30,410 bases of DNA from an uncultured virus (IMG/VR IMGVR_UViG_3300006467_000276). Taxonomy: Duplodnaviria > Heunggongvirae > Uroviricota > Caudoviricetes. The notes beneath the pieces are model-generated. The model was not told where the DNA came from. It did not search any database and saw nothing but the letters and a program-made list of their open reading frames with translations. Shown here piece by piece: positions 8,001 through 30,410 of the stretch; position 1 is the first letter of the stretch, and each line of letters starts with the position of its first letter. The stretch lies in IMG/VR virus record IMGVR_UViG_3300006467_000276; one strand, written 5' to 3'. Position numbers and translations under genes: made by a program.

Positions 8001-9258
8001 ACTCCTTTCCGCACAATGGACAGAACCCTTTCAGAGCAGCCGCCTCTTTTCTTGCCTGTGCAAACTTCTTGCTTACCAATTCAAGGCTACTCTGAGCCTC
8101 CTGTATTCGCTGAACTTGCCGTTCCAGAGAAGTACACTCAAACCGTATATCTTCGACTGATTTCTTTAGATCGTGCAAACCTTTCAGGTCAGGCACTTGC
8201 CTACTCGCAGCTTTCTGAGCCCCACCGACCTGACCGCACAGCAGCATCAACTGATTACATCGTTTCCTAGACTTCCCGGCCTGCCTGGCAGCATCTAGTA
8301 CCCTGTCAGCTGCTGCTGCTACCAATGCCGCCTGGTTGCTGCTACGTCCCGCAGACAGGTAGCTGGCAACCACCTGCAACTGATCTTTCCTGCGCAGACA
8401 TAAACGACCAGCGACCACTACTCGATCCACCAATTCGACCTGCCCACTAAGTCGAGATATCAGTGCACCCGAATCTTTTGATCGACGAATAGAGATCTTC
8501 AGTGAATCAATTCTTTGCTGATACTGGAAATGCTGCTTCGCACAATTGATCAGCCCCAGCAAACCTTCGACAGCGCCCTGGCCCTGCTTAACTTTTCTCC
8601 GAGCCTTTCGAATCGATTCAACCAAAATTCCAAGATCAGCTGAACGACTGGCTACGTCTGCGGCTTCTTTTTGCTTTGATTCTACTGCAACCAAAAGGCT
8701 ATCAGCATCCTCCACCCACTTGAGCTCTTCGGCTTCTTTTCGAACTGCGACAAGTCGCTCTTCAGCCAATTCTTCGGCAGTCCTCTCTCGTTTCACTCGA
8801 GATTTCGATGACTGCAGACTGCTATCAATTATCTGGAGATCGACAACCTCATTCAATCTTCGAGAAACTGCGCCTGAAGTCTCTGAAAACCAAAACGGTG
8901 AATCGTGCTGCGCTTGTGTGTTGATCTGATTCAAATTCAACAGATCAGCAACCTTATCCGGTACCGATGCACCGAACGACTTGAGCTTGGACTCTCCGAG
9001 TCGATACTCATTCACTGAAGCCGTTCTTCGTCGAATGATAACTTGCCCATCGACTTCTAACCGAACAACAGCCTCTTTCTCTCCTTCACGAATGAAAGCC
9101 GAACCTTGCGGCTGGTTGCAGCATACCCACTGCAAAGCACGAATGATTGCAGATTTACCAGAGTCCGAAGAACCGACAATCGTAGTCACTTTTTCATCGA
9201 ACTCGACAGTTCGTTTGCTGTGGGCTTGGAAATTCTTCAGTTTGAGTTTCTCAAACAT
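7984..9258 (-). CDS. SbcC/Rad50-like ATPase, N-terminal half ending at the zinc hook
   Basis: LKNFQAH, Walker A GSSDSGKS, Q-loop QAQ, long coiled coil, terminal CPLCG. Confidence 0.88.
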   Translation of the reverse strand: MFEKLKLKNFQAHSKRTVEFDEKVTTIVGSSDSGKSAIIRALQWVCCNQPQGSAFIREGEKEAVVRLEVDGQVIIRRRTASVNEYRLGESKLKSFGASVPDKVADLLNLNQINTQAQHDSPFWFSETSGAVSRRLNEVVDLQIIDSSLQSSKSRVKRERTAEELAEERLVAVRKEAEELKWVEDADSLLVAVESKQKEAADVASRSADLGILVESIRKARRKVKQGQGAVEGLLGLINCAKQHFQYQQRIDSLKISIRRSKDSGALISRLSGQVELVDRVVVAGRLCLRRKDQLQVVASYLSAGRSSNQAALVAAAADRVLDAARQAGKSRKRCNQLMLLCGQVGGAQKAASRQVPDLKGLHDLKKSVEDIRFECTSLERQVQRIQEAQSSLELVSKKFAQARKEAAALKGFCPLCGKEFGGGG

Positions 9259-9261
9259 GTA

Positions 9262-10248
9262 TCAGATTATCCGTTCAAGGAGCTGCAAAAGATAGGCGCG
9301 ATCCAGAGGTTTGCCTTCGGCATTCTCGATTTCCGCTCGATACAAATTCAGCACCTCCTGGAAGTGCGCAGCATCGACTCCAGTCATCTGGTCTTCGAGG
9401 ACGTTGAAATCGGTCAAATCCAAGTCACTAACCTGGAAACACATCTTCAGGTACTGAGCTGCTGTGATTCTCCATCCACGCTGAATGAACTTTCTGGTCC
9501 TGATCAATGAACAGACTGGATATTTACTGCCCTGGTATATCAACTCTCGAGACAACAGGCACTCCAGAGCAGCTGGCTTCAGAACCAACTCCCCATTCCA
9601 TGAAGTCCAGTAGTTGGTGCAATGGGCGAAGTCGTAGTTTTCATGAATCTGATCTGGTTCACCCCAAAATCGGATAACCATCTGGATATCATCACTCAAT
9701 GTGATAGCATTCGAAGACAACCAGATTGGCCGATAGGTCCGCTTCGGTTCTTTGATCTGATCTTCGGATGCACCATCAACCATACCCATCGCTGCATCGA
9801 GGTATTCTTCGGCTGCCTCATCATCAGGAACCGTTTCGAAGTACTCATAATCAGGTGTCTCATTTTCCGTAGCAATCCCAGAACTCCTAACAACCACCTT
9901 CAGTCTTGTCACTCTGGGATCTGTGAGTTCCGTTGGCAGCAATGTCCGGCGAGCCGGTTGTCCGTAATCATCTGCCAGATAACACTCAATCCCTTCCTGA
10001 GAACTCGGACGATTAGCCAGGTACTGCTTCACGTAGTAATCAGCCACCGCAAAAGCTGAGTCTCGGTCCTTGAAATAGACATCATAGTCATTGACCTTCT
10101 CTCCGAGAAGCATCGAAGCAATGCTGCCGCCTGTGACTATCGCAGACTGCAGAACCACATCCCGAACAGACGGATCCTCAATCGTCTCAGCCCATGATCG
10201 AATTTTTCGGCGGAGCACAGACTTAATCGTCTTGGCTTTCATCGACAC
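9262..10248 (-). CDS. Pol-beta-superfamily nucleotidyltransferase-like phage protein
   Basis: VTGGSIAS...NDYDVYF (GG...DxD), YDF, and YPVCSLIRTRKFIQRGW, reminiscent of CCA/poly(A) polymerase head and neck. Confidence 0.7.
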   Translation of the reverse strand: MSMKAKTIKSVLRRKIRSWAETIEDPSVRDVVLQSAIVTGGSIASMLLGEKVNDYDVYFKDRDSAFAVADYYVKQYLANRPSSQEGIECYLADDYGQPARRTLLPTELTDPRVTRLKVVVRSSGIATENETPDYEYFETVPDDEAAEEYLDAAMGMVDGASEDQIKEPKRTYRPIWLSSNAITLSDDIQMVIRFWGEPDQIHENYDFAHCTNYWTSWNGELVLKPAALECLLSRELIYQGSKYPVCSLIRTRKFIQRGWRITAAQYLKMCFQVSDLDLTDFNVLEDQMTGVDAAHFQEVLNLYRAEIENAEGKPLDRAYLLQLLERII

Positions 10249-18094: not shown

Positions 18095-19483
18095 TTAGAC
18101 CACCTGCGTTACGTCCACCGCTTTCTTCTCAAACCAATTCGTCGGAGAAGCCTCGGCTTCGATTTCCAAAGGCACGACAATCCAATCCCAATGCTGACGA
18201 ACCTTCTGTGTCATCACTTGATTGACTTCGTAAATTACGTCGTCAAACTCATCCTGATGCACGTCTAGCACCATTGAATCATGAATCTGACCGATTACTT
18301 TAGAACGCATCTTATTCTGCTTCAACCACTCATTCACTTGAATGAGAGACCAGAGAAGAAGATGAAATGATGGTCCTTGAATTGGATAGTTGTAGATGTT
18401 GTTCTTGGTGTAGACCCCTTTGCACACAAACCCGGTCATCATCTTGAACCAACCGCGTTTGAGGTACTCGTTCCACCAAACCTCTTTCTTGTCACGCCAG
18501 ACCGGAAACCGATCTCCAAATCTCTGCTCGACTTTTTTGACATGTCGATAGAACGAATCCATCTCTGGATGCTTCTTGTTTCCAAGAGCATTGATACCAA
18601 CACTACTCAAGTGCTCGTGCAGACCGACACCATCAACAGTCTTAAGGTCCATTCGATCAATGACAGCCCACAAAGCCTCTGCGCAGCTCCCCCAATAACT
18701 GCCATAGAGAATCGGAAAAACGAATTTGTTCTTCCCCATCCCTCGAGCAGCCTTCGTGACCTGATCAGCAGAAATAGAATAGCACTCTGCTGTCATGTCT
18801 CGATGGATGTCCAGACTAGGGTCGCTCGCATACGCCACCATCGATGGATCATTCCACTGGCAAGCTGCCCCACGAAACTCAAGAGCCGAATAATCGATCT
18901 CGACCAACAAGTGCTCCGGCGTTCTTGGGATAAATGCTCGTCGTATCAACTTCGCTTGCCGGGGATCCCGAATAGGCATGTTTTGGAAATTCGGGGTAGA
19001 GCTTGAGCTCCGAAACGTACGAGCAAAGCACAAATCAAAATTCGGATGCAGAAAGCCATCAACGGTTTCTCGACGAATTCCTTGCAGATAGGTGCCACGA
19101 GCTTTCTTCAGCTTCTCGAGCGACAGGAATTTCTTGACGAAAGGTAAGTCGATCTCTTCAAGCGCCTCGATATCTGCTGCAGCCCTGCCTGTGTCTGTTG
19201 TTCGGGTCGACGGTATTTCCATCACCCCAAAGAGAATCTTACCAAGCTGTTCCTTACTGCCTAATTCAGCTCTTCCTGGAAATGTCTTTCGCCAAAGAGC
19301 CCAAATCTCATCGTCTTTGAGCTCTACTTCCATTCGTCTGATTTTCTGACCTGCCTGCTTGATCACTCGGTCAAGATAATCAACATCAATCCGCATGCCG
19401 TTCGCTTCGACATCTGTCAAAGCCTGAGCCCCTTGCATCAGTAATTGGTAAGCTTCTGGTGTTGATGCGACGATTTGATTCAC
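18095..19483 (-). CDS. polA: family A DNA polymerase, polymerase domain only
   Basis: RSSSSTPNFQNMP, motif A DYSALEFR, motif B RGMGKNKFVFPILYG, NYPIQG, motif C QIHDS; GTG 19483 by GTGA coupling. Confidence 0.93.
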   Translation of the reverse strand: MNQIVASTPEAYQLLMQGAQALTDVEANGMRIDVDYLDRVIKQAGQKIRRMEVELKDDEIWALWRKTFPGRAELGSKEQLGKILFGVMEIPSTRTTDTGRAAADIEALEEIDLPFVKKFLSLEKLKKARGTYLQGIRRETVDGFLHPNFDLCFARTFRSSSSTPNFQNMPIRDPRQAKLIRRAFIPRTPEHLLVEIDYSALEFRGAACQWNDPSMVAYASDPSLDIHRDMTAECYSISADQVTKAARGMGKNKFVFPILYGSYWGSCAEALWAVIDRMDLKTVDGVGLHEHLSSVGINALGNKKHPEMDSFYRHVKKVEQRFGDRFPVWRDKKEVWWNEYLKRGWFKMMTGFVCKGVYTKNNIYNYPIQGPSFHLLLWSLIQVNEWLKQNKMRSKVIGQIHDSMVLDVHQDEFDDVIYEVNQVMTQKVRQHWDWIVVPLEIEAEASPTNWFEKKAVDVTQVV

Positions 19484-19590
19484 AGAGTTGTCACCCAAGC
19501 AACAGCAAACAGAACAACAAAGAGCCCAAAACAGATCACAGTAGTGATCAGCACGAACTTATCCAAATTCGGACCACCACCACTACTCAC
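19480..19590 (-). CDS. 36-aa single-TM peptide
   Basis: Hand-translated MSSGGGPNLDKFVLITTVICFGLFVVLFAVAWVTTL; GTGA overlaps at both ends. Confidence 0.6.
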   Translation of the reverse strand: MSSGGGPNLDKFVLITTVICFGLFVVLFAVAWVTTL

Positions 19591-20207
19591 TGGGACTGTA
19601 CTCCTGGGTGATGGATATTCTCTTCTTTACACCGTCTAGATCTCTCAAACCGAAGGATGTTTCCTGTTTTAGCATCAAACATCGCCTGAATGGGACCATA
19701 CCCACTATTTCTATCAACCCCTAGGATCCCGTTGATGATACCCAACATCCCGACGAACCAAGATCCTTCATCCTCGGCGCACTGAATCGTCGGATCATCT
19801 GCCAACGATTCAGTACAAACCGTCCGGTTTTCCACAAGAAATCGGATCGAATTCGGCGATGCAGCCAATGCGCGATTAAGCACCTGGATTGCTCTATCAA
19901 TCTCATTCGGTTCTCGTTGGTGCGTATAAAGCAGACTCAGTCGAGTGACCACTTCTCCTTCTCGTATCTCTGAAAATGATTCATCTTCAACCAAAAGATG
20001 AATATTTCCGTTGTGATCGAGCCCCGCCCTCAAAGCCGTCGCCGAGTCAGGAATGCCGTCATCAGCAAACTGAACCCGGATACCGTCAACTACTTCCCCG
20101 CCTGGCCGCACCTTCAGCAAATCAAGAAGAGCTTCAGGAGTAACCACAACCGACTTGACTCGGCGAGACTTCATCGACGCAGGATTGCACATTTCTAACC
20201 TAGACAC
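19587..20207 (-). CDS. hypothetical protein, probably two domains
   Basis: 206-aa ORF tiling the operon; second half carries LADDPTIQC...VGMLGIINGILG. Confidence 0.75.
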   Translation of the reverse strand: MSRLEMCNPASMKSRRVKSVVVTPEALLDLLKVRPGGEVVDGIRVQFADDGIPDSATALRAGLDHNGNIHLLVEDESFSEIREGEVVTRLSLLYTHQREPNEIDRAIQVLNRALAASPNSIRFLVENRTVCTESLADDPTIQCAEDEGSWFVGMLGIINGILGVDRNSGYGPIQAMFDAKTGNILRFERSRRCKEENIHHPGVQSQ

Positions 20208-20587
20208 TGTCCTGTCTCCGGATTATCGACCCAATTTCTCTTCTTGACAATTTTTTGCCAAGTCTTATTCAAAGCATCTTGCAGAGAAATTCCTTCACGG
20301 GACGCATAATCGCACAAGTAGATCAGAATGTCACCAACAGCATCGTCCCGTTCCTCTTGATATTTCTGCTCATCGTCGTAACCACGAATTCCCTGATGAT
20401 GCTTCAGAGTGACATGCGACAGCTCGCCCACTTCTTCGACTAGCCCGAGCAACGGGCTCAAAGACCCTAGCACCTGGTCTGTCGCCTTGCTGACCTGATC
20501 CCCGAAATTCACCCGAGACCACTTGGCTACCTCACTCTGAATCAGTGCCAATGATTTCTCAGACGGAGATTCATACTGCGTTTCCAT
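20195..20587 (-). CDS. MazG-like nucleotide pyrophosphohydrolase
   Basis: LVEEVGEL...DAVGDILIYL (EExxE...D metal-binding motif). Confidence 0.85.
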   Translation of the reverse strand: METQYESPSEKSLALIQSEVAKWSRVNFGDQVSKATDQVLGSLSPLLGLVEEVGELSHVTLKHHQGIRGYDDEQKYQEERDDAVGDILIYLCDYASREGISLQDALNKTWQKIVKKRNWVDNPETGQCLG

Positions 20588-21806
20588 CGACCATTTCTTT
20601 CTTTTGGTGCTTTGCTACGAGATACTCAACCAAAGCATCTAGCCCATTGTACGTCAGCGATGTCCTTCTATCCGTATGTACCAGCTGATTCTGATCGTAC
20701 GAACTAGACCCGCTACCAGTTTTCAGGTCCCGGCCCATTGATCCGCTCCACGGCTCAAATCCTAACCGTACAAAAGCCTGAAACTCAACTGATTTTGTAT
20801 CAGGGCGATTATCCAAGTGATGAGCGGACAGCATTGTATCCCATACCCAGTTATTCACTGAATGCCCAAACTCCGCTCGAGTCCACCGATCTTCGAATTT
20901 GTTGTTGGCCCCTATCTTAGGGCACGGCGACTGAAGCCACTCGCTCATCGCTTCCTTCACTGCTCCCGCCCAAGGAAAAGCAATGGTGCGTCTGCCTGCG
21001 TAAGAAACCGCACAGGATACAATCTGGCTGGTATCAGCATCAGGCTTAAGGCATGTCGTTTCGTAATCAAATGACCCCGGACGCGGTGTTTTGCACCATT
21101 CTCTGATAATGGCAGCAGCTTCGTCAGGGTCATGCACCAACTCCACTTGCCCACGATAGTCAGGCACTTCAGTCCACGGCCTACTACCGCTGAGATCAAA
21201 AGCCTGTTTCAAGCACCGCTCGAACCACAACCGAGTTACCGGACCATTCGGTTTGCGATCATTCGTCAGAATGAATGATGGATGGAAATCCGGCACCACC
21301 CAAGAATTTATTCGCTGGAGTGGTATTTGATACCCTACCCAACGATTCACGCCGCCTGGATCAGTCTTCCAGAAAGGACTCAAAACAGAACGAATCGCTG
21401 AGCCGCCTAAAGGTATGATGACCTTCGGTTTGTACTCCTTGAGGAAATTCGTCAAGTTTGGGCGGCATGCATCGACTTCATCTGGCTTTGGAGCTCTGCC
21501 GCCTGCCGGATGACAAATGATAGCATTCGTCGCCCAGCAGTCTCGATCAAAATCAATACCAATGGACTCTAAGTACCGCCGAAGATACTGACCAGCTTTC
21601 CCGACGAACGAATTGCCTTGGATATCCTCGTCCCTGTCAGGAGCCTCACCGACAATCAAAACACCAAGCCGCCCCTTCCCTGAGACCTCAAACTTCGGAC
21701 TACTGCACGATTCCCAGAGCCCGCACTGTCCGCATCTAGGTACAGTACCCTGAACCGCCGGCTTGCTGCGTACAATTGATTCCGGAAAAAAGCCTCCAAC
21801 TGCCAC
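20571..21806 (-). CDS. family-4 uracil-DNA glycosylase fused to a DnaQ-like 3'-5' exonuclease (N-terminal part of split PolA)
   Basis: CGQC, VGEAPD, FVGKAG, ICHP, DAC, FHPSF (UDG); FDYET, NNKFED, DTML, YNGLDA (Exo I-III). Confidence 0.9.
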   Translation of the reverse strand: MAVGGFFPESIVRSKPAVQGTVPRCGQCGLWESCSSPKFEVSGKGRLGVLIVGEAPDRDEDIQGNSFVGKAGQYLRRYLESIGIDFDRDCWATNAIICHPAGGRAPKPDEVDACRPNLTNFLKEYKPKVIIPLGGSAIRSVLSPFWKTDPGGVNRWVGYQIPLQRINSWVVPDFHPSFILTNDRKPNGPVTRLWFERCLKQAFDLSGSRPWTEVPDYRGQVELVHDPDEAAAIIREWCKTPRPGSFDYETTCLKPDADTSQIVSCAVSYAGRRTIAFPWAGAVKEAMSEWLQSPCPKIGANNKFEDRWTRAEFGHSVNNWVWDTMLSAHHLDNRPDTKSVEFQAFVRLGFEPWSGSMGRDLKTGSGSSSYDQNQLVHTDRRTSLTYNGLDALVEYLVAKHQKKEMVDGNAV

Positions 21807-22868: not shown

Positions 22869-23302
22869 AATTCGAATCCTCGAATCCCTGACTTGGTGTT
22901 CAAAAGTGTATCAATTCTGCTGACAACCTCATCAACAGTCCGGCACAGCATGTTGGCCAAATATTCAGGGGAGTTCTCCCGAACTCTCTCTGAATCAGTA
23001 CTCAGCCCCCAGCGAATGACTCGATCCTCAGTCCATGTGAATCGCTCTCCAGTACGAACAGTTCTTCCCTCTTTCGCAGGGTCTAGTTCATAGTCAGTTC
23101 TTCGGACTGCTCGACGCCGCAGCAAATGGTCCCCCTGGATCAAGCTACTATAGGCATCCCGATCGTATCGCTTTCCGAAGGCAACCAGTGCTCTCTCGTA
23201 CTCCTGCTTCGAATCTGCAGGCAGCACCATCTCTAAGAAGAGGTCGATGTCAGCATTGACCCACTCGGTTCGATTTTTTGCTTCGGTGCAATCTCTGTCC
23301 AT
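22865..23302 (-). CDS. putative Myb/HTH-like DNA-binding protein
   Basis: Two W/F-x3-D/E helix starts (EWVNADIDL, FTWTEDRVI) and LANMLCRTVDEV; C-terminus IRGFEL. Confidence 0.5.
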   Translation of the reverse strand: MDRDCTEAKNRTEWVNADIDLFLEMVLPADSKQEYERALVAFGKRYDRDAYSSLIQGDHLLRRRAVRRTDYELDPAKEGRTVRTGERFTWTEDRVIRWGLSTDSERVRENSPEYLANMLCRTVDEVVSRIDTLLNTKSGIRGFEL

Positions 23303-24306
23303 TTCCGAAATGCCTTGTGCCCCTTAGTTGTCGTCGTCATCCCAATCTTATGATAGGACATCAACCGTCTTCTCAGACGAAATTCAACGGAATCGTCGAT
23401 AGATCCTTCGCCGCCAGCGAAATAGATGTGATCGACGGGCAAATCCTGATTCGCTCGAATGATGAATCCAGCATTCGCTCGAAACCGCCATTGGTGAGAT
23501 GTAACTACTCCAGGAGTGACCGTCCGCACCACCTTATTCTTTTTGCCGTCGAACCAAAGCTCATCAGGCGATTTCTTATACCCCGAAGAAACGTCTACTA
23601 TCTCAATCTCACCGACAGGCAGCTTCTTTTCCTGAAGGTACTCGTCTACCCATGCACGAAGCGTAGGCGACAGAGTCGTGTAATGCGTATTCCGTTCATC
23701 CCGAGTTGGAGACTTCGGGGACGTATTCAGCAAGAATGGTGGTTCGTCATAAACAAACTCACCATTCCTCTTCTTCGGAATGTAAATCACTCCATAGGCT
23801 GCCTGCTTCAGCCAGCTCGCCGAATCAACTGAATACCACCACTGGTACTTCATCAACTGAAACGACGTGACGGCAAACCCATGAGTCTTGACTGTCGGCC
23901 TACCAGCTCCATCAAACAGCAATTTCTGGAGCCCAGTCAAATACCTCTTCTGAGAATCTTTGGACCCAAAGCCGCAAGTCTGACCAAGCCCGACATAAGG
24001 ACTGCCGAACTCGATGTACCTTTCCAGCCACTTCAAGTCCTCTCCTCGGTGGAAGACCGGAATGACTTTTTCGATGGGCAGCTCTTTGATCATCAGCTGA
24101 TAATTGTTCCAGCTCGTCTCACAGGCAGCCGCCACCAATTCAGGCAATCGAGAATTCGGCAGTCCAGGTTTACCAGGAATGGCATCCAGGCACACATAGT
24201 ACGACACACCAGGATGCTGATGACAGAAATCGATGTACGTTCTGATATCGATTTCAGCGCCAGAGTTCCAAACAGAAAACGCACCACTGTCAAGCATCAA
24301 GGGCAC
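23233..24306 (-). CDS. dpdA: TGT-fold DNA transglycosylase DpdA (7-deazaguanine insertion into DNA)
   Basis: LDSGAFS, LDAIPG, IPVFH.GE, YVGLG, THGFAVT, SVDSASW; clustered with folE/queE/queD. Confidence 0.85.
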   Translation of the reverse strand: MPLMLDSGAFSVWNSGAEIDIRTYIDFCHQHPGVSYYVCLDAIPGKPGLPNSRLPELVAAACETSWNNYQLMIKELPIEKVIPVFHRGEDLKWLERYIEFGSPYVGLGQTCGFGSKDSQKRYLTGLQKLLFDGAGRPTVKTHGFAVTSFQLMKYQWWYSVDSASWLKQAAYGVIYIPKKRNGEFVYDEPPFLLNTSPKSPTRDERNTHYTTLSPTLRAWVDEYLQEKKLPVGEIEIVDVSSGYKKSPDELWFDGKKNKVVRTVTPGVVTSHQWRFRANAGFIIRANQDLPVDHIYFAGGEGSIDDSVEFRLRRRLMSYHKIGMTTTTKGHKAFRKWTEIAPKQKIEPSGSMLTSTSS

Positions 24307-24319
24307 TGATACTCACTCC

Positions 24320-24799
24320 TTAATCAAAAATTCGAGCCGCCGCGACGTCTTCTTGAGTCCGGCAACCAGCCAACTTCTCATATCGCCGCTGTTTTTCGGC
24401 ACGAAGCTGCAGCACCTTCCTGCCAGTTGCGTCTTTGGCACGCTCGGCCTCTCTTACCTCATCGACAACCGCCGCAATCGCAGAGCACAGATCCATTCTT
24501 GACGGACACGATCGCGAGTGATGACGTTTCTCGTACGGCAGTTTCTTGTTTAGCTTCTCCCTGGCCACTTCCAGCTTCTCGCCGATACTTGCGTACTCCG
24601 CTTCCAGTCGTTCAACCTCTGCCAGCTCCTTCGCAATCTTGAGACGGCCGACAGCAACCTTTCGACATCGTTCCTCAAGTCGCCGCTCATGCGACTCATC
24701 AGTTACTGCCAACTCCCTCATTCCCGCCAGATATCGGTCATCGATCAACTTCTTGATGTCTGCGCGTTCACTTGTCGTCATCTGAGCCATCGCGCTCAC
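24320..24799 (-). CDS. hypothetical coiled-coil protein
   Basis: GTGA coupling to the folE stop; helical charged composition. Confidence 0.7.
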   Translation of the reverse strand: MSAMAQMTTSERADIKKLIDDRYLAGMRELAVTDESHERRLEERCRKVAVGRLKIAKELAEVERLEAEYASIGEKLEVAREKLNKKLPYEKRHHSRSCPSRMDLCSAIAAVVDEVREAERAKDATGRKVLQLRAEKQRRYEKLAGCRTQEDVAAARIFD

Positions 24800-25431
24800 T
24801 CCTTAATCAAATCAAAGAACTCAGAACGGACTGCCGGTTCAAGGAATGATCCGTACAGACTCGAAGTAACCATGACCGAGTCTCTTTTCCCTACTCCTCG
24901 GCAGCTCATGCACGAATGATGGGCCTCAATCACACACGCAGCTCCCTTTGGCTGCAAATGCTTGTTCAGTGCATCAGACACCTGCTGGCACAGTCGCTCT
25001 TGTACCTGCAACCGCCGTGAATAGTAATCCAAAATCCGAGCCAACTTCGAGATACCGATGATCTTTCCGTCTGGTAGATACGCAATATGAGCTCGACCAG
25101 AAAACGGCAGCATGTGGTGCTCGCACAATGAGATGAACTCAATGCTTCTCAAGAGCACCATTTCATTGCAAGCACCATCCTCGAACACAGTCATAATTCT
25201 TTCCATGGCTGCATCTTCGGACTCTTGGTACCCTGAGTTCATCTCAAGCAAACTAGCCGCCACCCGCCTCGGAGTATCGAGAAGACCCTCCCGAGTGGGA
25301 TCTTCGCCGATAAACCGAAGCAAAGTGGTAACCGCATCTTTAGCTTGGTCGATCGTGATTTCTGCTGCTCGACGAAGAGCATCTGATGTGACATTTGCCA
25401 GAATGCGATAGTCCTCGTTCAAATCCATCAA
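24796..25431 (-). CDS. folE: GTP cyclohydrolase I
   Basis: REGLLDTPRRVA, SLCEHHMLPF, GISKLAR, RRLQVQERL, HSCMSCRG. Confidence 0.97.
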   Translation of the reverse strand: MMDLNEDYRILANVTSDALRRAAEITIDQAKDAVTTLLRFIGEDPTREGLLDTPRRVAASLLEMNSGYQESEDAAMERIMTVFEDGACNEMVLLRSIEFISLCEHHMLPFSGRAHIAYLPDGKIIGISKLARILDYYSRRLQVQERLCQQVSDALNKHLQPKGAACVIEAHHSCMSCRGVGKRDSVMVTSSLYGSFLEPAVRSEFFDLIKE

Positions 25432-26129
25432 TCCAGTCCTGCCAATTTGTGGGTCTGTACAGACAAGCGATAACCGAATCTACGGCAGGATTCCACCGCA
25501 GCATCCAGGTTCTTCTTGTTCTTGATCTCATCTTTTTCGTCCAGCGGCTGCACAAAAATTTTGTCAGCCACTTGATTGAGCATCGGTGGGCGGTACGGAC
25601 GACCATATTGAGGTCCGACCGACACTAAAGGCAGTCCATCACTCGAATCAATCAATCCAGCTTTCACCACATACTTGAATGCATCCGCTCTCATAGCGGT
25701 TTGATGTGGGATTGACCGTGTCTTCGGCGAACATACCACTGACATCTTTGCCAGGATGAACGGCACACCTAGTGTACCGTTTGTCTCTATCTGCACAATC
25801 CCGCCCGGACCCATCTCGTCAATGAGACGAAGAACCAAAGATTGCAGATTTTGACGGAAAGGCTCACCTCCAGTGATGACTATCAGCTTTCTGCTCGGCA
25901 AAGCCGACAACTCTTCGACTACATCCAAAGGTGTCATTCTTTTTCGAACAGAAGTGTAGTCAGTGTCGCACCAATGGCACTGTAGATTACAGCCTGCCAA
26001 CCGGATAAAGACAGCCGGCGTCCCAAAAAAGGGGCCTTCGCCTTGCACTGTATCCCAGATCGAATGGACTTCCACCGAACCGTCCGGATGAGCATCCTTA
26101 GGCTCTATCTTCTGTGTGTTCTTCTCCAT
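25428..26129 (-). CDS. queE: 7-carboxy-7-deazaguanine synthase (radical SAM)
   Basis: TVQGEG..GTPAVFIRLAGCNLQCHWCDT, ITGGEP, IETNG, VCSPK, RLSVQTHK; ATG 26129. Confidence 0.95.
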   Translation of the reverse strand: MEKNTQKIEPKDAHPDGSVEVHSIWDTVQGEGPFFGTPAVFIRLAGCNLQCHWCDTDYTSVRKRMTPLDVVEELSALPSRKLIVITGGEPFRQNLQSLVLRLIDEMGPGGIVQIETNGTLGVPFILAKMSVVCSPKTRSIPHQTAMRADAFKYVVKAGLIDSSDGLPLVSVGPQYGRPYRPPMLNQVADKIFVQPLDEKDEIKNKKNLDAAVESCRRFGYRLSVQTHKLAGLD

Positions 26130-26577
26130 AATCTGCCCAGCAATTCGGTGTTTCATAGAGCCGCACATGAGTGACCGTGACCAGCTCATCTTCAAGCAAA
26201 TCAACAGCCACTTCAAACAAAACTTCCGCCATGGTCTCTGCCGTTGGATTGAGTCCATCAGGCATCAAATACGGCGTCTTTGGTCCGACCAACTCTCTGG
26301 CTTCCTCGTCAGTCATGCTGTCCAGTACGTCGCACAAGGGATCGTTTCGATTCAGAAGAAAATTGTGATCCCAATATTCATCAATCCAACCACCAACAAT
26401 TTTCTTTACGACACTGAAATCAACCACCCTGCTCAGACTATCCAGAGCATCAGCTGTGACAGATATCTCAGCAACGTACCGATGCCCGTGCAGATTTGCA
26501 CATTTCGACTCATGCCCGAGAACCCGATGCCCAGCATCAAATTCAATTTTTCGAGTAATGACTGTAGATCGACTCAC
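26098..26577 (-). CDS. queD: 6-carboxytetrahydropterin synthase
   Basis: FDAGHR, CANLHGHRY, VDF, DH, NPTAE, ETP. Confidence 0.95.
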   Translation of the reverse strand: MSRSTVITRKIEFDAGHRVLGHESKCANLHGHRYVAEISVTADALDSLSRVVDFSVVKKIVGGWIDEYWDHNFLLNRNDPLCDVLDSMTDEEARELVGPKTPYLMPDGLNPTAETMAEVLFEVAVDLLEDELVTVTHVRLYETPNCWADYGEEHTEDRA

Positions 26578-26592: not shown

Positions 26593-26961
26593 TTACACAA
26601 TATCGCACACGGAAGAACACGTAGAAGTGCCTCCACTGTCGTGCGTTTCTATCCGAAAAGTGTGACGAAAACTCGAAAAAAATCCCGGACGAATCATACA
26701 CCGAAAAAGAGTGCCGGCAGAGACCTTTCCGTCCAAAAACGGATCAACAACTCCATGCCATTCAGGTTCACAAGTCCCACCACCATCCCAAATCACACAT
26801 CGTAATGGAGACCCGAACCCGTGATTAAGTGTCCTCGAGGTCGCAGGATCTCTCAACGAAACTTTCTGTCCAGGTTCCAAATCATCACTGCACTCCACCA
26901 CCACAAACGGAACATGAACAGCATCGCGTGAACCTAATACCAAATCCACAGTTTCCATCAC
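26593..26961 (-). CDS. conserved phage hypothetical protein (RDAVH...PGQ...GVVDPFL...RH)
   Basis: GTGA coupling to the glycosyltransferase stop; motif pattern recalled from phage hypotheticals. Confidence 0.65.
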   Translation of the reverse strand: MMETVDLVLGSRDAVHVPFVVVECSDDLEPGQKVSLRDPATSRTLNHGFGSPLRCVIWDGGGTCEPEWHGVVDPFLDGKVSAGTLFRCMIRPGFFSSFRHTFRIETHDSGGTSTCSSVCDIV

Positions 26962-28037
26962 AGAGTCCCTTCTACGAGGACATCGCAGATACCCTGCAAG
27001 CTGTCATCGTACCGAGAAGCCATCTGCCGTACCGGAAACGGTACCGCCATTGCCTGCTCGATAAGTTCAAGCTGATGGGGTCTCGTGGTGAACAGGCACC
27101 GTTCTTCACCGCACAGCAATTCGGAATGACTGTAAGCATCTTCGACGATTGGAATGGTGTCGAAGATCAAAGCTTCAAGGATGCAATATCCAAAATTCTC
27201 TTCGATAGAATTTCCGGTCATCACCTGAGCTTCTGAGAGTATCTTGAGATACTCCTTCTTTGACAAGCCTTCGTAGACAGTCAGCCAGCCTTCTTGTTCG
27301 TACCTCTTAGCTCGATTTCTCAGAGGACCGCCTGCCCACATCTTGCGGCTAGTGGTTACCGCAAATTCCCAATCAGGATGCTGCCGGTGCAACCAAGCGA
27401 ACGCATCAAGCGTGTGCTCAGGTCTCTTCTCAGGATCCGGGCGATTGGTATGGACTACCAATTTCTTCTTTTCGGCTCCGGGAAACCATCTGGCACCTTC
27501 GCATACTTCAGAGGATTTGTACGGATTTCCAGTAACCAGAATTTTGTTCTCAGAAATCCCTCGATTATCGATGAGCTGCTTCTTGTGGTACTCAGAGCCC
27601 ACCATAATCAAATCGCAGATTGCTCCCCAGCCTACCTCGTACCACCGGGCAAACGGAGCACACGGTTCCATGAAGTCTTCTCTCGTATAACTCCCGGCAT
27701 GCGCAAATCCGTAGATCTTGACATCAATTCCATTCAAAACTGATAGATACCGAATCGACTCAATGCCCCAGAACTCAATGTCAGCTACGAAAAACACATC
27801 ATCTGGCTGGATTTTGTTCTCGTAGAAAAGCTTCGCCACTCTCTGAAGCTGAGTCGCCTTGTAATGCAGCGTTGAGTTGACGTCGAGAAACGTCCCAGTC
27901 TCAACTGTATCCGTCAGCGGCTCACCGTCAATCACAGTAAACCGAGCTCCTCGTTCTTCCAGCACCTCCGGAAACCAACGATACCACTGCTCTGAGTAAC
28001 GTTCTTCGAGAGGCTCGATAGGCAGCAAGTAAATCAT
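26958..28037 (-). CDS. GT-B (GT4-like) glycosyltransferase
   Basis: HAGSY, VTGNP, RPDPEKRPE, and EENFGYCILEA (E-x7-E motif). Confidence 0.85.
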   Translation of the reverse strand: MIYLLPIEPLEERYSEQWYRWFPEVLEERGARFTVIDGEPLTDTVETGTFLDVNSTLHYKATQLQRVAKLFYENKIQPDDVFFVADIEFWGIESIRYLSVLNGIDVKIYGFAHAGSYTREDFMEPCAPFARWYEVGWGAICDLIMVGSEYHKKQLIDNRGISENKILVTGNPYKSSEVCEGARWFPGAEKKKLVVHTNRPDPEKRPEHTLDAFAWLHRQHPDWEFAVTTSRKMWAGGPLRNRAKRYEQEGWLTVYEGLSKKEYLKILSEAQVMTGNSIEENFGYCILEALIFDTIPIVEDAYSHSELLCGEERCLFTTRPHQLELIEQAMAVPFPVRQMASRYDDSLQGICDVLVEGTL

Positions 28038-28039
28038 CC

Positions 28040-29095
28040 TCAGTCAATCTCCAGAAGCTCGTGGACAGGTGGCATCAGACGGACGTTCGCGTGCAGCCTG
28101 TCAATGAACTTGACCGATAGCTGTCCCAATTCAGCAGCACTGAGGACGTTCTCTCGATACCTCGGCATAAGCAGAACTCGGTGCCCGTAAATCGCATGAA
28201 GATTCGCCTGATTGATGTAGGTCTCAAGCGGCCTTGATCTCAAATCAGCTGTAATTTTGACGAACCCATGAAACGGACACGTAGCTGAGGTTCCTCCGAA
28301 ATTTGCATCCTCCAGAAAATACTGAACCTGGTGATGCTGCCGGTACTCACTTGAGATAAAGTAGATCTGCGACATCGGGCAGTCCACTGTGACAGGTAAG
28401 TTGAATTTCAAGCATTCTGAAATCAACTTATCCGAAGGATGCTGAGTGTTTACGTACAAAGCGTGGCAGCCAGTTGCATCGACATCCCGAAGAAGGACTC
28501 CCGGAGTATCATCCATCATCGGCTTCACATCATCCGCCACTCGACAGAACAGAGTCGGCGTACCCAGCAACGGCCCTTCTCCTTCCAGAGATCGCTTACT
28601 CGACACAATTCGCACAGGCTCAATAGCATCGAGATACTCCCACACGTCACCATCAGTCCACTCATAGACAGGGAACGCCGCAGTCAAGCCGAACACTCCA
28701 TCCTCTGTAATCCAATCAGGCATCTGAGAGCGATGGATCTCCTCCCCATCGAACTGGACTGTCTTGTCTTCGTCTTTTCGTGTGCCGTCAAACTGGCAAA
28801 CCAGATCCACCAAACTGAGAAACTTCGGCACGTTTTCCAGCTTCGGCTCCTTGACGCAGAGAAGGCCTTCTGTTCCGTCAACTCTCTCGCCGGCATGTCC
28901 ATTGTGGATGACAGTAATTCCCGGCAGCACCTTCCGGCAGAGATGCAAGACTACTCGCGAGTCCTTTCCGCCGCTATAGGCTGCGTACACCCGATTTTCA
29001 CCAAATGTCTCAACCATTTGGCGGATTCGGGAAACTGCCAAGTCTTCCAGGTTCTTCAACCGATCACTCATCACCGTTCGGGTCATCTGTTTCAT
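28040..29095 (-). CDS. PAPS-reductase-like PP-loop domain fused to a degenerate QueE-like domain
   Basis: AYSGGKDS, DGTRKDE, PVYEWTDGDVWEY; then SLEGEGPLLGTPTLFCRV and C-terminal VRLMPPVHELL matching QueE, but no CxxxCxxC. Confidence 0.75.
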   Translation of the reverse strand: MKQMTRTVMSDRLKNLEDLAVSRIRQMVETFGENRVYAAYSGGKDSRVVLHLCRKVLPGITVIHNGHAGERVDGTEGLLCVKEPKLENVPKFLSLVDLVCQFDGTRKDEDKTVQFDGEEIHRSQMPDWITEDGVFGLTAAFPVYEWTDGDVWEYLDAIEPVRIVSSKRSLEGEGPLLGTPTLFCRVADDVKPMMDDTPGVLLRDVDATGCHALYVNTQHPSDKLISECLKFNLPVTVDCPMSQIYFISSEYRQHHQVQYFLEDANFGGTSATCPFHGFVKITADLRSRPLETYINQANLHAIYGHRVLLMPRYRENVLSAAELGQLSVKFIDRLHANVRLMPPVHELLEID

Positions 29096-29116: not shown

Positions 29117-29902
29117 TCAAAGAACACAACCGTTTTCGCCGTCCTCAAACACAGACACTTTCACAAGACGGCCGACGTATTCCGCTTCAATACGTCGCTT
29201 GATCATCAAAGCCATCATTTCGCAGCTCAGATGCGGCCCTTTTTCCTGAGAATCGAACCACTTCTGAATCCAGTCACTGAAAATGAGATACTCTACATCT
29301 CGATCATCGTGGAATTGCTGTACGGAAACCTCGAAATGGAATTTGTGGCGATGTGGGTGTGACAAAAATTTGACAGCATCCGGCGCCGCAGGGTAACTAT
29401 GAGTGAGTACTCTTTCGAATCTCACCGTAGCCCAAATCACTTCATCAAACGATTTGATAGACCTGAACAAGAAGTACTTGTCTGATTTGGTAATGGTGTC
29501 GACTTGGGATGGATACAACTCTCTGAACAGAGCTTCTTTGCCTTTGGAATCGTCTTCCTCTTCGAGCCAAGGCACATTCATTTCTACCGAATAGAATCGA
29601 AGCTGGGTCTTTGTTCGTCCTGCCCAATCAATTCCACAAGACCGCACAATTCTATGAAGTGGATGATAGTCGAACTGGCTCGGTACGTAAAGAATGTCCG
29701 CACTTGTCTGATTTGCCAACGACACCTTCGCTGCTGCACTGCTATCGTGGTACCAAAGATACCTTCTCGGAATATCGGCCGCATCGAGATGGTCGAGTCT
29801 CTTTTCATCCCTGTCAAAGTAGATTACCAATCCAACTCGTGACAATACCGAGTAACAGCCGATGAGCTCATCATCCAAGTGGGGTGCAAGTATGATGTCC
29901 AT
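29117..29902 (-). CDS. PIG-L/LmbE-like deacetylase fused to a QueD/PTPS-like T-fold domain
   Basis: APHLDDE, DYHPLH, K...YPSQ (PIG-L); H.YPAAP..FL.HPHRH.FH, DRDVE, SCEMMA, VSVFEDGENG (T-fold). Confidence 0.75.
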   Translation of the reverse strand: MDIILAPHLDDELIGCYSVLSRVGLVIYFDRDEKRLDHLDAADIPRRYLWYHDSSAAAKVSLANQTSADILYVPSQFDYHPLHRIVRSCGIDWAGRTKTQLRFYSVEMNVPWLEEEDDSKGKEALFRELYPSQVDTITKSDKYFLFRSIKSFDEVIWATVRFERVLTHSYPAAPDAVKFLSHPHRHKFHFEVSVQQFHDDRDVEYLIFSDWIQKWFDSQEKGPHLSCEMMALMIKRRIEAEYVGRLVKVSVFEDGENGCVL

Positions 29903-29965: not shown

Positions 29966-30409
29966 CTACTCCTTTTTGCCGCCTTCAGATTCCACTGAAG
30001 TCCCCGCAAATCCCATCAGAGCGTCAACCGCCCACGTCAGCGCACCTTTGCTCACCTTGGGATTCGCTTTCCCGTATTCCTTATCAACCGCATCGATCAG
30101 CTCAGCAGTGATCCCATTTTTGCGATTGATGTCACCTGGGCTGTCGAAGTGCTCTGCCAGCACCTTACCAGCACAGTACCCACGACTCTTGGCACTCCGA
30201 ATGCGGCCTCGCTTCGGCTTCGACGGCTTCGACGGCTTCGACGGCTTCTCTTCCTGGGAACCGTCGTCGGCATCACCGTCGTCGGCATCACCGTCGTCGG
30301 CATCACCGTCGTCGGCATCACCGTCGTCGGCATCACCGTCGTCGGCATCGCCGTCGTCGGCATCACCGTCGTCGGCATCACCGTCGTCGGCATCACCGTC
30401 GTCGGCATC
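29966..30409 (-). CDS. hypothetical protein with acidic DADDG repeats, 5'-truncated
   Basis: Open from the window edge: (DADDG)10-SQEEKPSKPSKPSKPKRGRIRSAK...GGKKE*, in frame with track ORF 29966..30163. Confidence 0.7.
   Translation of the reverse strand, partial: DADDGDADDGDADDGDADDGDADDGDADDGDADDGDADDGDADDGDADDGSQEEKPSKPSKPSKPKRGRIRSAKSRGYCAGKVLAEHFDSPGDINRKNGITAELIDAVDKEYGKANPKVSKGALTWAVDALMGFAGTSVESEGGKKE
30215..30248 (-). repeat. 9-bp coding repeat, about 3.8 copies (SKP)
   Basis: CGGCTTCGA repeated on the + strand. Confidence 0.85.
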
Positions 30410-30410
30410 A
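30261..30410 (-). repeat. 15-bp tandem repeat, 10 copies, running off the window end
   Basis: CCGTCGTCGGCATCA x10 with one variant at 30350. Confidence 0.95.

Follow-up and report, generated by a model that had tools for sequence, protein, structure and literature searches.

Phages gain protection from restriction enzymes and CRISPR through 7-deazaguanine modifications of their DNA. QueC is a PP-loop enzyme, and the C-terminal catalytic cysteine tail of the PAPS reductase CysH is recognized as an ECGLH motif. In a preprint account, QueC and the RoyL-type QueC homologues adenylate CDG, to which ammonia or amino acids are then added (bioRxiv 10.64898/2026.04.15.718813), while the phage enzyme CmoY, an asparagine-synthetase homologue, is described as adenylating the carboxyl group of a DNA base and adding glycine to it (PMC12783734). 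Substrate-binding roles have been assigned to Q13, E15 and R27 of E. coli QueE (PMC11142719), and Arg27 of QueE was reported to form a salt bridge to the CPH4 carboxylate (PMC5347944). In QueC-less phages, DpdL was proposed to be a CDG decarboxylase, distinguished by the signature LxxxHRHxF in place of the QueD CxxxHGH; reconstitution of this branch failed, and further enzymes were suggested to be needed (Cui et al. 2023).

We analyzed an open reading frame within a 30,410-nt stretch of viral DNA (the window), located at 28040..29095 on the minus strand, which encodes a protein of 351 aa composed of a PP-loop domain followed by a cluster-less domain of the QueE fold. No published description of such a PP-loop/dQueE protein was found among PMC open-access papers and bioRxiv.

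Domain architecture of the 351-aa protein

The true start of the open reading frame may be at 29071, because relatives of the 351-aa protein begin at the position of M9. Pfam analysis identified PF01507 in the N-terminal domain (residues 1-160; 28616..29095, minus strand) with an E-value of 6.5e-10 and a score of 39.7 bits against a gathering cut-off of 22.5, and precomputed annotation placed PF01507 on 8 of 10 other proteins (P0002-P0011). The PP-loop motif SGGKDS (S41-S46; 28958..28975, minus strand) is invariant in all nine full-length relatives, and the motifs HNxHxGE, DGTRxxEDK and IHR, as well as W146 (in PLxxW), are also invariant among relatives. In the full-length AF2 model, this domain matched the PAPS domain of human FAD synthase (8rom) with Z 15.1 and CysD (1zun_A) with Z 13.8, and the core fold over residues ~8-160 gave Z 11-15 to structures of the PF01507 family, the nearest being FAD synthase, CysD and APS/PAPS reductases. 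Both the profile and the structural comparison bore out the original prediction that the N-terminal domain is PAPS-reductase-like; it is a PP-loop ATP-pyrophosphatase of the PAPS-reductase/CysD/FAD-synthase type.

The minimal PP-loop core stops directly after the conserved PLxxWTxxDVWxYL element. An ECGLH-type cysteine tail is absent from the 351-aa sequence, in which the residues after 160 belong to the QueE-like domain, and identification as a PAPS reductase proper (CysH) was rejected because this catalytic tail is missing. The NCBIfam cysH models scored 17-21 bits against cut-offs of 154-165, and the NCBIfam CysD model matched only residues 9-57 (E 2.9e-9; 36.6 bits, the cut-off being 195). 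The Pfam scan of the protein gave no match to PF06508 (QueC), and the profile scans detected no DNA-binding domain or motif in it.

The remainder of the protein (residues 161-351; 28043..28615, minus strand) is a QueE-fold domain without the Fe-S site, here termed dQueE. When this domain was modeled alone (AF2 pLDDT 89, pTM 0.86), QueE from B. subtilis, B. multivorans and E. coli occupied ranks 1-3 of 48,161 PDB chains, with Z 13.5, an rmsd of 3.0 A and 171 aligned residues for B. subtilis QueE (5tgs_A), Z 11.1 for 4njg_A and Z 11.0 for 6nhl_B, and with SuiB (Z 9.7) and PFL-AE (Z 9.6) behind QueE. In the full-length model (pLDDT 82.3), residues 158-347 aligned with 5tgs_A with Z 12.3 and an rmsd of 3.2 A over 178 residues. 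Foldseek against the PDB returned three matches at E<=1e-3, all of them B. subtilis QueE; viral QueE was the best match in the BFVD structure search, and QueE clusters were on top in the ESM Atlas structure search (TM 0.70-0.71). The AF2 and Foldseek check that accompanied the original prediction of a QueE-derived domain lacking CxxxCxxC confirmed, at the level of predicted structure, that the entire chain of this domain folds as the partial (beta/alpha)6 barrel of QueE.

Support from the sequence was mixed. In a single BLASTP comparison, the 351-aa protein shared 10 of 19 residues with the neighboring QueE (E 6e-5). When alignments were compared by hhalign, the family alignment A1 matched a QueE sequence over 29 columns (probability 27%), a five-sequence alignment of the C-terminal domain matched six phage QueEs over 79 columns (probability 60%, E 8.6e-5), and the 44-sequence family alignment matched five QueEs over 28 columns, the N-terminal motif only (probability 14%). 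No QueE was found by PDB-sequence searches with the full-length (A1) and C-terminal domain (A2) HMM profiles. The resemblance between the dQueE and QueE sequences exceeds chance, but it is short and weak, and it is the structure comparison that settles the relationship with QueE.

Residues 162-189 (RIVSSKRSLEGEGPLLGTPTLFCRVADD) include the EGEG motif (E171-G174; 28574..28585, minus strand), which is the best-conserved stretch across the dQueE family and corresponds to the QGEG of QueE, with its substrate-binding Q13 and E15. E171, E173 and R185 occupy the positions of Q13, E15 and R27 of E. coli QueE. Across the family, the E15 position is invariant and E occupies the Q13 position in at least 90% of members; the equivalent of Arg27 is R in seven of nine fused but only six of 44 stand-alone relatives. 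The basic residue of G-x-[KR]-T is kept in 50 of 53 sequences, and in the other three an R or H sits where QueE has Arg27. E173, G174, G178, T181, K280 and P343 are invariant and 11 more residues are near-invariant, and the conserved block coincides with the QueE strand bearing the substrate residues Q13 and E15. The C-terminal motif NVRLMPPVHELLEID (28043..28087, minus strand; family consensus VRxMPPV[HQ]xLLxI) is found at the position of YRLSxQxHKxxGL in QueE; this positional likeness is real, but the likeness in sequence is weak. The neighboring QueE (25428-26258) contains VHSIWDTVQGEGPFFGTPAVFIRLAGC and ends in GYRLSVQTHKLAGLD; all of the strings that had been quoted for the two proteins, including SGGKDS at residues 41-46, were present. 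The accompanying claim that both substrate-binding segments remain stood for the N-terminal segment of this protein (E171, E173 and R185), although the R27 equivalent is poorly conserved among stand-alone relatives, and stood for the C-terminal one in position but only weakly in sequence.

The CxxxCxxC motif is absent from all 60 proteins examined, 58 of which are dQueE relatives, indicating that radical-SAM chemistry has been lost, and there is no cysteine among the invariant or near-invariant columns of the family. The positions of C31, C35 and C38 of E. coli QueE are taken by D189, M193 and D196 within a variable stretch (residues 186-196, VADDVKPMMDD; 28508..28540, minus strand) that overlaps the residues with pLDDT below 50 in the AF2 model (190-197). 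PF04055 (Radical_SAM) had no match at E<=0.1 in the Pfam analysis of the 351-aa protein, and the SAM-binding GGE is replaced, with ALYVN aligned opposite ITGGEP of QueE by hhalign. These comparisons show that the C-terminal module derives from QueE, having kept the whole barrel and the N-terminal substrate-binding strand (E-G-E-G...G-x-[K/R]-T) and lost the cluster cysteines and GGE. The domain would illustrate clearly how a radical-SAM enzyme can be reused as a ligand-binding pseudoenzyme.

The dQueE family and its gene neighborhood

A search of 1.84 billion proteins yielded 54 cluster representatives at a threshold of E<=1e-3, and 47 of these also passed E<=1e-10. They define a previously unnamed family with the QueE fold and without the cluster. 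Near-complete matches among those listed were 161-352 aa long, all without CX3CX2C. Most members are stand-alone proteins of about 175 aa, of which ~42 were found by exhaustive profile search; the word-indexed protein search returned none of these shorter, stand-alone forms. Pairwise identity of the representatives to the copy in the 351-aa protein is 19-37%, and the invariant and near-invariant residues among the 54 representatives indicate that the family is under selection. No relatives were present in a scan of 185,579 species genomes, and a metagenome scan added just two further loci. A 92-kb contig carries a gene identical to that at 28040-29095.

The PP-loop and dQueE modules are fused in two of seven loci (the window and L002) and are encoded by separate genes, overlapping or adjacent, in the other five (L003, L004, L005, L091 and L092). 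The two genes overlap by GTGA/ATGA in L004 and L005, and in L092 they are separated by a 101-aa open reading frame. The two proteins divide 5-11 residues before EGEG, the point at which a QueE begins. A frameshift artefact is an unlikely source of the split forms, because the same split recurs in five contigs that are independent of each other and the start codons are positioned as for translational coupling; the PP-loop and dQueE reading frames are intact in all seven loci. Fusion in two loci and overlap or adjacency in five indicate that the modules work as a pair, the partner of the dQueE family being a PP-loop ATPase that is either fused or encoded by a neighboring gene. We hold the anatomy, a PP-loop and a cluster-less QueE fold acting together, to be highly probable.

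A gene for a GT-B glycosyltransferase (359 aa; 26958..28037, minus strand; PF00534, E 1.5e-10) begins immediately downstream of the stop codon that ends the 28040-29095 open reading frame, and its orthologues adjoin DpdL in 18 cultured-phage records. On the other side, a fusion gene (29117..29902, minus strand) encodes a PIG-L/LmbE-like domain (residues 1-156, with APHLDDE at 29867-29887, minus strand) and a DpdL domain (residues 157-261), in which the LxxxHRHxF signature (29339-29365, minus strand) reads LSHPHRHKF. Profile comparison of this protein with PDB sequences gave no match. By tblastn, its DpdL domain was 36% identical to the ACP17 gene (E 1e-12) and 33% identical to the PA5oct gene (E 3e-11) that are named DpdL in Supplementary DS1 of Cui et al. 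2023. Signature and homology to known DpdL proteins together identify the C-terminal domain of the neighbor as a predicted DpdL.

The minus strand also encodes QueD (CPH4 synthase; 26098..26577; PF01242, E 3.2e-31), the radical-SAM QueE with CNLQCHWC (25428..26129, the longest open reading frame reaching 26258), FolE (GTP cyclohydrolase I; 24796..25431; PF01227, E 3.7e-67) and a DpdA-like DNA transglycosylase (23233..24306; phrog_887, E 4e-42), which is syntenic in related loci. This deazaguanine gene cluster sits inside the replication module. The gene order PIG-L-like/DpdL fusion, PP-loop, dead QueE, GT-B, QueD, QueE is found in all seven loci, and FolE and DpdA come next in every locus whose contig extends there, the DpdA match in L005 being weak and 46 residues long. 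Six-frame searches for QueC (PF06508) gave no match at E<=1 in any of six viral records (G001-G006) that contain the PP-loop/dQueE gene or its relatives, one of which is a complete 95-kb genome, and control genomes matched in 14 of 14 cases; the set left out the records of the two metagenome-scan loci and the 92-kb contig with the identical gene.

Xanthomonas phage X1 and Burkholderia phage BCSR5 have the same module with a truncated dead-QueE homologue (143 aa and 155 aa, respectively) that matches only the N-terminal half of the domain, indicating that a full QueE-type pocket is not universal. By hhalign, the pair of proteins matched the 44-sequence profile with a probability of 90.6%, and the X1 protein alone matched a five-sequence profile with 1.7%. 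Partial matches point to the same module in BUDD. Neither the X1 nor the ACP17 record, each searched in full, matched the A2 profile at E<=1, and a 215-aa protein of X1 was rejected as a homologue of the C-terminal domain (hhalign probability 0.2%) and is the PIG-L-like protein. PP-loop, PIG-L-like and dQueE-like genes co-occur in all seven loci and in phages X1 and BCSR5, and ACP17, Phosso and BUCT-ZZ01, which have only the glycosyltransferase and DpdL, gave no match to PF01507. A five-gene module (PP-loop, dead QueE, PIG-L-like, glycosyltransferase and DpdL) is thus common to uncultured phages and cultured Xanthomonas and Burkholderia phages; the counts of gene context cover the seven loci and the cultured phages and leave out ~40 stand-alone relatives.

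Proposed function and rival explanations

On the best explanation, the product of the gene is an ATP-dependent activating enzyme of two modules that serves a QueC-less phage pathway of 7-deazaguanine DNA modification, and for which we infer CDG binding and ATP-PPi chemistry. The QueE-derived module would be a ligand-binding subunit for the pathway's own CDG (CPH4 being less likely) and would take the place of the substrate-specific C-terminal part of other PAPS-reductase-family enzymes. The PP-loop domain would adenylate the carboxylate of the ligand with release of PPi, leading to amide formation with an amine. The probability of CDG-carboxylate adenylation is estimated at about 45%. The action of QueC and the RoyL-type homologues on CDG, and that of CmoY on a DNA base, set precedents for such chemistry. 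CDG binding is favored by the identity of the conserved dQueE block with the QueE substrate strand and disfavored by the small number of stand-alone relatives with R at the Arg27 position (6/44). Against CDG activation, DpdL in the same cluster would remove the very carboxylate being activated, and against a carboxylate substrate, the nearest structural relatives of the N-terminal domain act on phosphate or sulfate oxygens.

More speculatively, the amine would be an amino sugar supplied by the adjacent GT-B glycosyltransferase and PIG-L-like de-N-acetylase rather than ammonia, and the product, a sugar-bearing 7-deazaguanine carboxamide, would be inserted by DpdA or finished on DNA. Hypermodification beyond preQ0 is suggested by the presence of GT-B and the PIG-L-like/DpdL fusion in all seven loci. 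It is possible, though doubtful, that the whole scheme applies, with the cluster-less QueE and minimal PP-loop forming a new CDG-activating ligase that acts with GT-B, PIG-L-like and DpdL proteins to give DNA bearing a sugar-linked 7-deazaguanine carboxamide. If so, this would be a purine hypermodification not yet described, and, for at least some of these phages, the failed DpdL reconstitutions would have lacked this ligase as their 'other unknown enzyme'. The module provides a concrete, experimentally accessible route to what is probably a new purine hypermodification.

An unlikely alternative places the adenylation on DNA, with DpdA inserting CDG, the barrel binding flipped-out dCDG and the PP-loop activating its carboxyl group for amidation on the polymer, as in CmoY. 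The location of the cluster inside the replication module fits this scheme, as do the occurrence of dCDG in phage DNA (Cui et al. 2023) and the action of CmoY on DNA with 5-carboxymethylcytosine as the handle (PMC12783734). However, QueE binds a free pterin or base, the protein has no detected DNA-binding domain or motif, and the DpdL pocket is described as fitting only the free base (Cui et al. 2023, supplement), which suggests base-level chemistry in these clusters.

Similarly improbable is adenylyl transfer to a non-carboxylate acceptor such as a phosphate, sulfate or sugar-phosphate, the QueE-like domain then binding another ligand or serving as a scaffold for QueE, DpdL or the glycosyltransferase. 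The best matches of the N-terminal domain are to FAD synthase, CysD and APS/PAPS reductases, the Arg27 equivalent is poorly conserved, and the next gene encodes a glycosyltransferase that needs an activated donor, all of which speak in favor of it. Sugar nucleotidyltransferases, however, are normally of a different fold, conservation in the QueE-like domain falls precisely on the QueE substrate strand, and CPH4 and CDG are the only carboxylated small molecules made by the cluster.

The suggestion in the original prediction of a non-orthologous QueC replacement proved too simple, in spite of the absence of QueC. It would have CDG and ammonia converted to ADG/preQ0 for insertion by DpdA, with the glycosyltransferase, PIG-L-like and DpdL proteins acting later or independently; the absence of QueC in six of six viral records, the intact PP-loop motif and a QueE-like domain suited to CDG binding agree with it. 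Nevertheless, we consider it very unlikely, as the gene was never seen in a minimal FolE/QueD/QueE/DpdA cluster but is accompanied by the glycosyltransferase, PIG-L-like and DpdL genes in all seven loci, X1 and BCSR5; DpdL marks a QueC-independent route; neither a QueC-type zinc-binding C-terminal element nor a PF06508 signal is present in the protein; and other phages with DpdL and the glycosyltransferase manage without the PP-loop protein. Finally, a decaying queE duplicate accidentally fused to its neighbor and without a function of its own, which the loss of all radical-SAM motifs and the 10/19 match to the neighboring QueE might suggest, is effectively refuted by the conservation of invariant residues among 54 representatives at 19-37% identity, by intact reading frames in seven of seven loci with both fused and split forms kept, and by the confident AF2 model (pLDDT 89).

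Comparison with known systems

The closest clusters are those of the DpdL-type dDG phages (Cellulophaga phage phiST, Acidovorax phage ACP17 and Pseudomonas phage PA5oct), which likewise have FolE, QueD, QueE, DpdA and DpdL and no QueC (Cui et al. 2023), whereas the present cluster carries DpdL as a fusion with a PIG-L-like domain and additionally contains a PP-loop and a dead QueE. The glycosyltransferase that accompanies DpdL in 18 records is absent from the gene table of Cui et al. 2023. CmoY offers a functional analogy, as a phage enzyme described as carrying out ATP-dependent adenylation of a carboxyl 'handle' on a modified base (PMC12783734), but it belongs to another family and acts on another base, and its activity was shown experimentally whereas that of the PP-loop/dQueE protein is predicted.

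The QueC/RoyL-type CDG amide synthetases share with the fusion the PP-loop SGGxDS and the predicted substrate CDG, and the fusion sits in a FolE/QueD/QueE cluster where QueC is missing. In contrast to them, it belongs to the PF01507 rather than the PF06508 branch and has no zinc-binding C-terminal part, substrate recognition apparently having moved to the QueE-derived domain. PAPS reductase, CysD and eukaryotic FAD synthase have the core fold and motifs of residues ~8-160 in common with it, but here the core is truncated, and the QueE-like domain stands where these enzymes have their family-specific C-terminal substrate part. QueE has in common with dQueE the whole fold, the x-G-E-G...G-x-x-T/A-x-F strand, which in stand-alone dQueE proteins lies at the same distance from the N-terminus, and a similarly positioned C-terminal R...[HQ] motif. 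Unlike QueE, dQueE has neither CxxxCxxC nor any conserved cysteine, carries ALYVN in place of GGE, has no PF04055 match, cannot form the 5'-deoxyadenosyl radical and is shorter, at about 175-190 aa.

In the MshA/MshB/MshC (mycothiol), BshA/B/C and PIG-A/PIG-L systems, a GT-B GlcNAc transferase is followed by a PIG-L-family de-N-acetylase and then by an ATP-dependent ligase, which acylates the amine exposed by deacetylation. Although the putative ligase here is of a different fold, all three enzyme types appear, by analogy, to be encoded side by side at this locus.

Gene content of the 7-deazaguanine cluster

The window covers a portion of a phage genome in which a replication and recombination module on the minus strand, encoding a split family-B-like DNA polymerase, a clamp, a clamp loader, a UvsX-like recombinase, RuvC, an SbcCD-like nuclease and a thymidylate-synthase-like protein, leads into a 7-deazaguanine cluster. 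The two polymerase ORFs (18095-19498 and 20571-21806, minus strand) match consecutive parts of phrog_17 (profile positions 477-828 and 834-1237) and have two small genes between them, one MazG-like (20195-20587); the thymidylate-synthase-like protein (4109-5092, minus strand, 327 aa; phrog_85, E 6.5e-54) is longer than usual. In transcription order, the cluster genes, all on the minus strand and contiguous or overlapping by a few bases, encode a PIG-L-like/DpdL fusion (29902-29117), the PP-loop/dead-QueE protein studied here (29095-28040), a GT-B glycosyltransferase (GT; 28037-26958), a 122-aa protein of unknown function (26961-26593; phrog_17232 and phrog_11912), QueD (26577-26098), QueE (26129-25428), FolE (25431-24796), a 159-aa protein of unknown function (24799-24320) and a DpdA-like transglycosylase (24306-23233). 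The 122-aa ORF has no counterpart between GT and QueD in six related loci. At 30215-30410, a 9-bp repeat (30215-30248, 3.8 copies) and a 15-bp tandem repeat (30260-30410, 10.1 copies, 98% matches) encode, on the minus strand, (DADDG)n and then (SKP)3 in an ORF that continues past the window end.

The C-terminal 105 residues of the PIG-L-like/DpdL fusion contain LSHPHRHKF, and LxxxHRHxF is the signature separating DpdL, the proposed decarboxylase of 7-carboxy-7-deazaguanine (CDG), from QueD (Cui et al., NAR 2023). Its tblastn matches included the genes of phages ACP17 and PA5oct given as DpdL in Supplementary DS1 of that study. The N-terminal 155 residues are PIG-L/LmbE-like, with APHLDDE and HPLH motifs; the PIG-L Pfam score (E 9e-4) was under the cut-off, the ESM Atlas comparison gave TM 0.78-0.80 to PIG-L clusters, and 26 of 30 feature hits fell in the PIG-L set. 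The same fusion is present in all six related loci; phages X1 and BCSR5 encode the two parts as individual genes.

A PP-loop domain paired with a QueE-like domain lacking the cluster cysteines

All sequence strings quoted in the original prediction are present in the 351-aa ORF, and its assignment of a PAPS-reductase-like N-terminal domain was borne out by a match of the first ~160 residues to PF01507 (E 6.5e-10, 39.7 bits, cut-off 22.5), with SGGKDS at residues 41-46. The PP-loop core ends directly after a PLxxWTxxDVWxYL element that aligns with FAD synthase and CysD. Sequence comparisons of the remainder with QueE were modest and uneven between runs: BLASTP against the neighbouring QueE aligned 19 residues, 10 of them identical (E 6e-5, as a single comparison), and profile comparisons gave 27% probability over 29 columns, 60% over 79 columns in a second run (E 8.6e-5; ALYVN against ITGGEP, VTVE against IETNG) and 14% over only 28 columns when the deepest alignment of the family was used. 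An HMM search of PDB sequences recovered PP-loop enzymes with the N-terminal domain and no match with the C-terminal domain. Sequence alone therefore does not prove QueE homology past the N-terminal motif.

Structure prediction was utilized for both domains. In a full-length AF2 model built from nine full-length relatives (pLDDT 82.3, pTM 0.73), re-comparison of Foldseek matches aligned residues 8-192 with the PAPS domain of human FAD synthase (Z 15.1, rmsd 2.5, 143 residues), CysD (Z 13.8) and APS/PAPS reductases, and residues 158-347 aligned with QueE of B. subtilis (5tgs_A; Z 12.3, rmsd 3.2, 178 residues) and E. coli (Z 10.4). When a model of the C-terminal domain only, from 44 relatives (pLDDT 89, pTM 0.86), was compared exhaustively with 48,161 PDB representatives, QueE of three species ranked first to third (Z 13.5, 11.1 and 11.0), followed by the radical-SAM enzymes SuiB (9.7), PFL-AE (9.6) and lysine 2,3-aminomutase (8.8). 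The three Foldseek matches in the PDB at E<=1e-3 were all B. subtilis QueE, with B. multivorans and E. coli QueE next; the best viral model in BFVD was a QueE (E 6.5e-5), and the structures nearest to the ESM Atlas's own model were QueE clusters (TM 0.70-0.71). Because QueE structures ranked first, the C-terminal domain is predicted to adopt a QueE-like barrel, as had been proposed.

The loss of the CxxxCxxC motif, also proposed originally, extends to the family: CX3CX2C was absent from all 60 collected proteins (58 of them relatives), which have no conserved cysteine. In E. coli QueE, Q13, E15 and R27 contact the substrate, C31, C35 and C38 the cluster, and T40 Mg (PMC11142719). By fixed motif spacing, the counterparts of Q13, E15 and R27 are E171, E173 and R185, and the cysteine positions are occupied by D189, M193 and D196, in a variable stretch with pLDDT <50 at residues 190-197. 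The equivalent of Arg27, which in QueE binds the carboxylate of the QueD product CPH4 (PMC5347944), has been lost from most stand-alone relatives. A basic residue near the substrate strand is found throughout: 50 of 53 proteins have K/R, and the remaining three carry R or H where QueE has Arg27. The window copy has GTPTLFCR at residues 178-185, with Pro where those 50 have K/R (the neighbouring QueE reads GTPAVFIR), and retains the Arg27-equivalent, so its local likeness to QueE is inflated compared with that of other members.

A C-domain profile search of 1.84 billion representatives identified 54 dead-QueE proteins at E<=1e-3 (47 at E<=1e-10, 14 at E<=1e-30), including five fusions of 332-352 aa and ~42 stand-alone proteins of 161-199 aa, in which EGEG starts at residue 6-21 as in normal QueE; the remainder were fragments or alternative gene calls, and four more fusions came from the initial search. 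E173, G174, G178, T181, K280 and P343 are invariant in 44 members, and E171, G172, Y214, A297, N298, V307, L309, M310, P311, R339 and P342 nearly so. DNA context was available for seven loci, and in all of them the modules occur as an obligate pair: a single ORF encodes both in the window and in L002, and two ORFs do so in L003, L004, L005, L091 and L092. Among the split pairs, the ORFs overlap at GTGA/ATGA-type junctions in L004 and L005 and by 17 nt in L003 and L091; those of L092 have a 101-aa ORF between them.

Related loci and cultured phages

The order PIG-L-like/DpdL, PP-loop, dead QueE, GT, QueD, QueE is common to the window and the six related loci, except that L005 differs; further along, on contigs long enough to include them, come FolE and DpdA (the L005 DpdA match is weak, over 46 residues). 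In L005, a complete 95-kb relative, FolE, QueD and QueE lie upstream rather than downstream, and an extra radical-SAM protein (9185-9934, plus strand, 249 aa; CNGKCEYC and a Cys-rich C-terminus) lies between the PIG-L/DpdL and PP-loop genes. A six-frame search for QueC (PF06508, E<=1) found no match in six of six viral records and matches in 14 of 14 control genomes. The viral records were G001 (32% complete), a 55.8-kb contig with the identical gene (60%) and others of 38%, 87%, 20% and 100%; the complete genome is 95 kb long and has terminal repeats. For the phage that the window comes from, the negative result covers an incomplete record only.

Homologues of the window GT were found in 18 phage records, all within the 21 matched by the DpdL domain. 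They lie directly beside DpdL in PA5oct (L095 5995-7518), ACP17 (L081 5957-7369), L096 (5615-7086) and BUCT-ZZ01 (L097 5629-7158); in PA5oct and ACP17 the gene is between DpdA and DpdL and has no assignment in the table of Cui et al. The final base of DpdL phages may carry a sugar. PA5oct is reported only to have a modified G, without an assigned identity (PMC12191111). In BUCT-ZZ01, a Synechococcus phage, a xanthine-guanine phosphoribosyltransferase gene (L097 1084-1545) adjoins QueE in the GT and DpdL cluster, which hints at nucleotide-level working in some such phages, as in tubercidin biosynthesis.

Xanthomonas phage X1 has the order FolE, PP-loop (177 aa), PIG-L-like, 143-aa protein, GT (44% identity), DpdA, DpdL and QueE, and Burkholderia phage BCSR5 has DpdL, P-loop protein, PP-loop, PIG-L-like, 155-aa protein, GT, 446-aa protein and, further on, QueE. 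The BCSR5 P-loop protein (L094 4233-5159, 308 aa, GTNSSGKTT) is absent in the window's group. The 143- and 155-aa proteins start KIG[IL]EVEG..G..T.F, and, taken as a pair, they match the dead-QueE family across its N-terminal half (hhalign 90.6%, E 1.3e-6, 89 columns) and not QueE itself (0.5%). The search for PF01507 was negative in ACP17, Phosso and BUCT-ZZ01 and gave weak matches in BCSR5, where the gene belongs to the cluster, and in PA5oct, where it lies 50 kb from it. PP-loop, PIG-L-like and dead-QueE-like genes are thus present or absent jointly, over a GT and DpdL core.

Possible function and comparison with known systems

The protein joins a PP-loop core, minimal in extent but intact in its motifs, to a QueE-fold partner without cofactor sites, in a cluster without QueC. 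PP-loop enzymes adenylate a substrate oxygen, releasing PPi. The QueE-like module appears to occupy the place, after the PP-loop core, of its relatives' own substrate-specific parts, and its strongest conservation falls on the QueE substrate strand, with a basic residue near; the simplest synthesis, we infer, is that it would hold CDG, with which the encoded FolE-QueD-QueE route ends, and that the PP-loop domain makes CDG-AMP, which would be attacked by an amine. Free glucosamine amines are classically produced by a GT-B transferase acting with a PIG-L-type deacetylase, and since this pair co-varies with the PP-loop gene, an amino sugar is favored, speculatively, as the nucleophile. With the DpdL/PIG-L fusion also in the cluster, two pathway enzymes, QueD (as DpdL) and QueE (as dead QueE), thus appear to serve a hydrolase and an ATPase as partners that bind purines or pterins.

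Several observations count against this model. DpdL, if truly a CDG decarboxylase, competes for the same carboxylate, and the Arg27-equivalent is missing in most stand-alone members. The enzymes most similar to the N-terminal domain use phosphate or sulfate groups, and the X1 and BCSR5 homologues are half-length. Rival readings, each less likely, are the plain QueC replacement of the original prediction, action on dCDG within DNA, adenylyl transfer to a non-carboxylate group, and a scaffold or remnant, the remnant being least likely.

For the proposed adenylation of CDG, QueC and the RoyL-type CDG-amino-acid ligases (bioRxiv 10.64898/2026.04.15.718813) are precedents, and phage CmoY, acting on carboxymethylcytosine DNA (PMC12783734), is a precedent for the chemistry. 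Searches of PMC open-access papers and bioRxiv found nothing describing a QueE paralogue without the cluster, a deazaguanine cluster with a PAPS-reductase-like gene, or what GT and DpdL clusters make. The system is of a known type, phage 7-deazaguanine DNA modification, and what is new within it is a protein family, the dead QueE.
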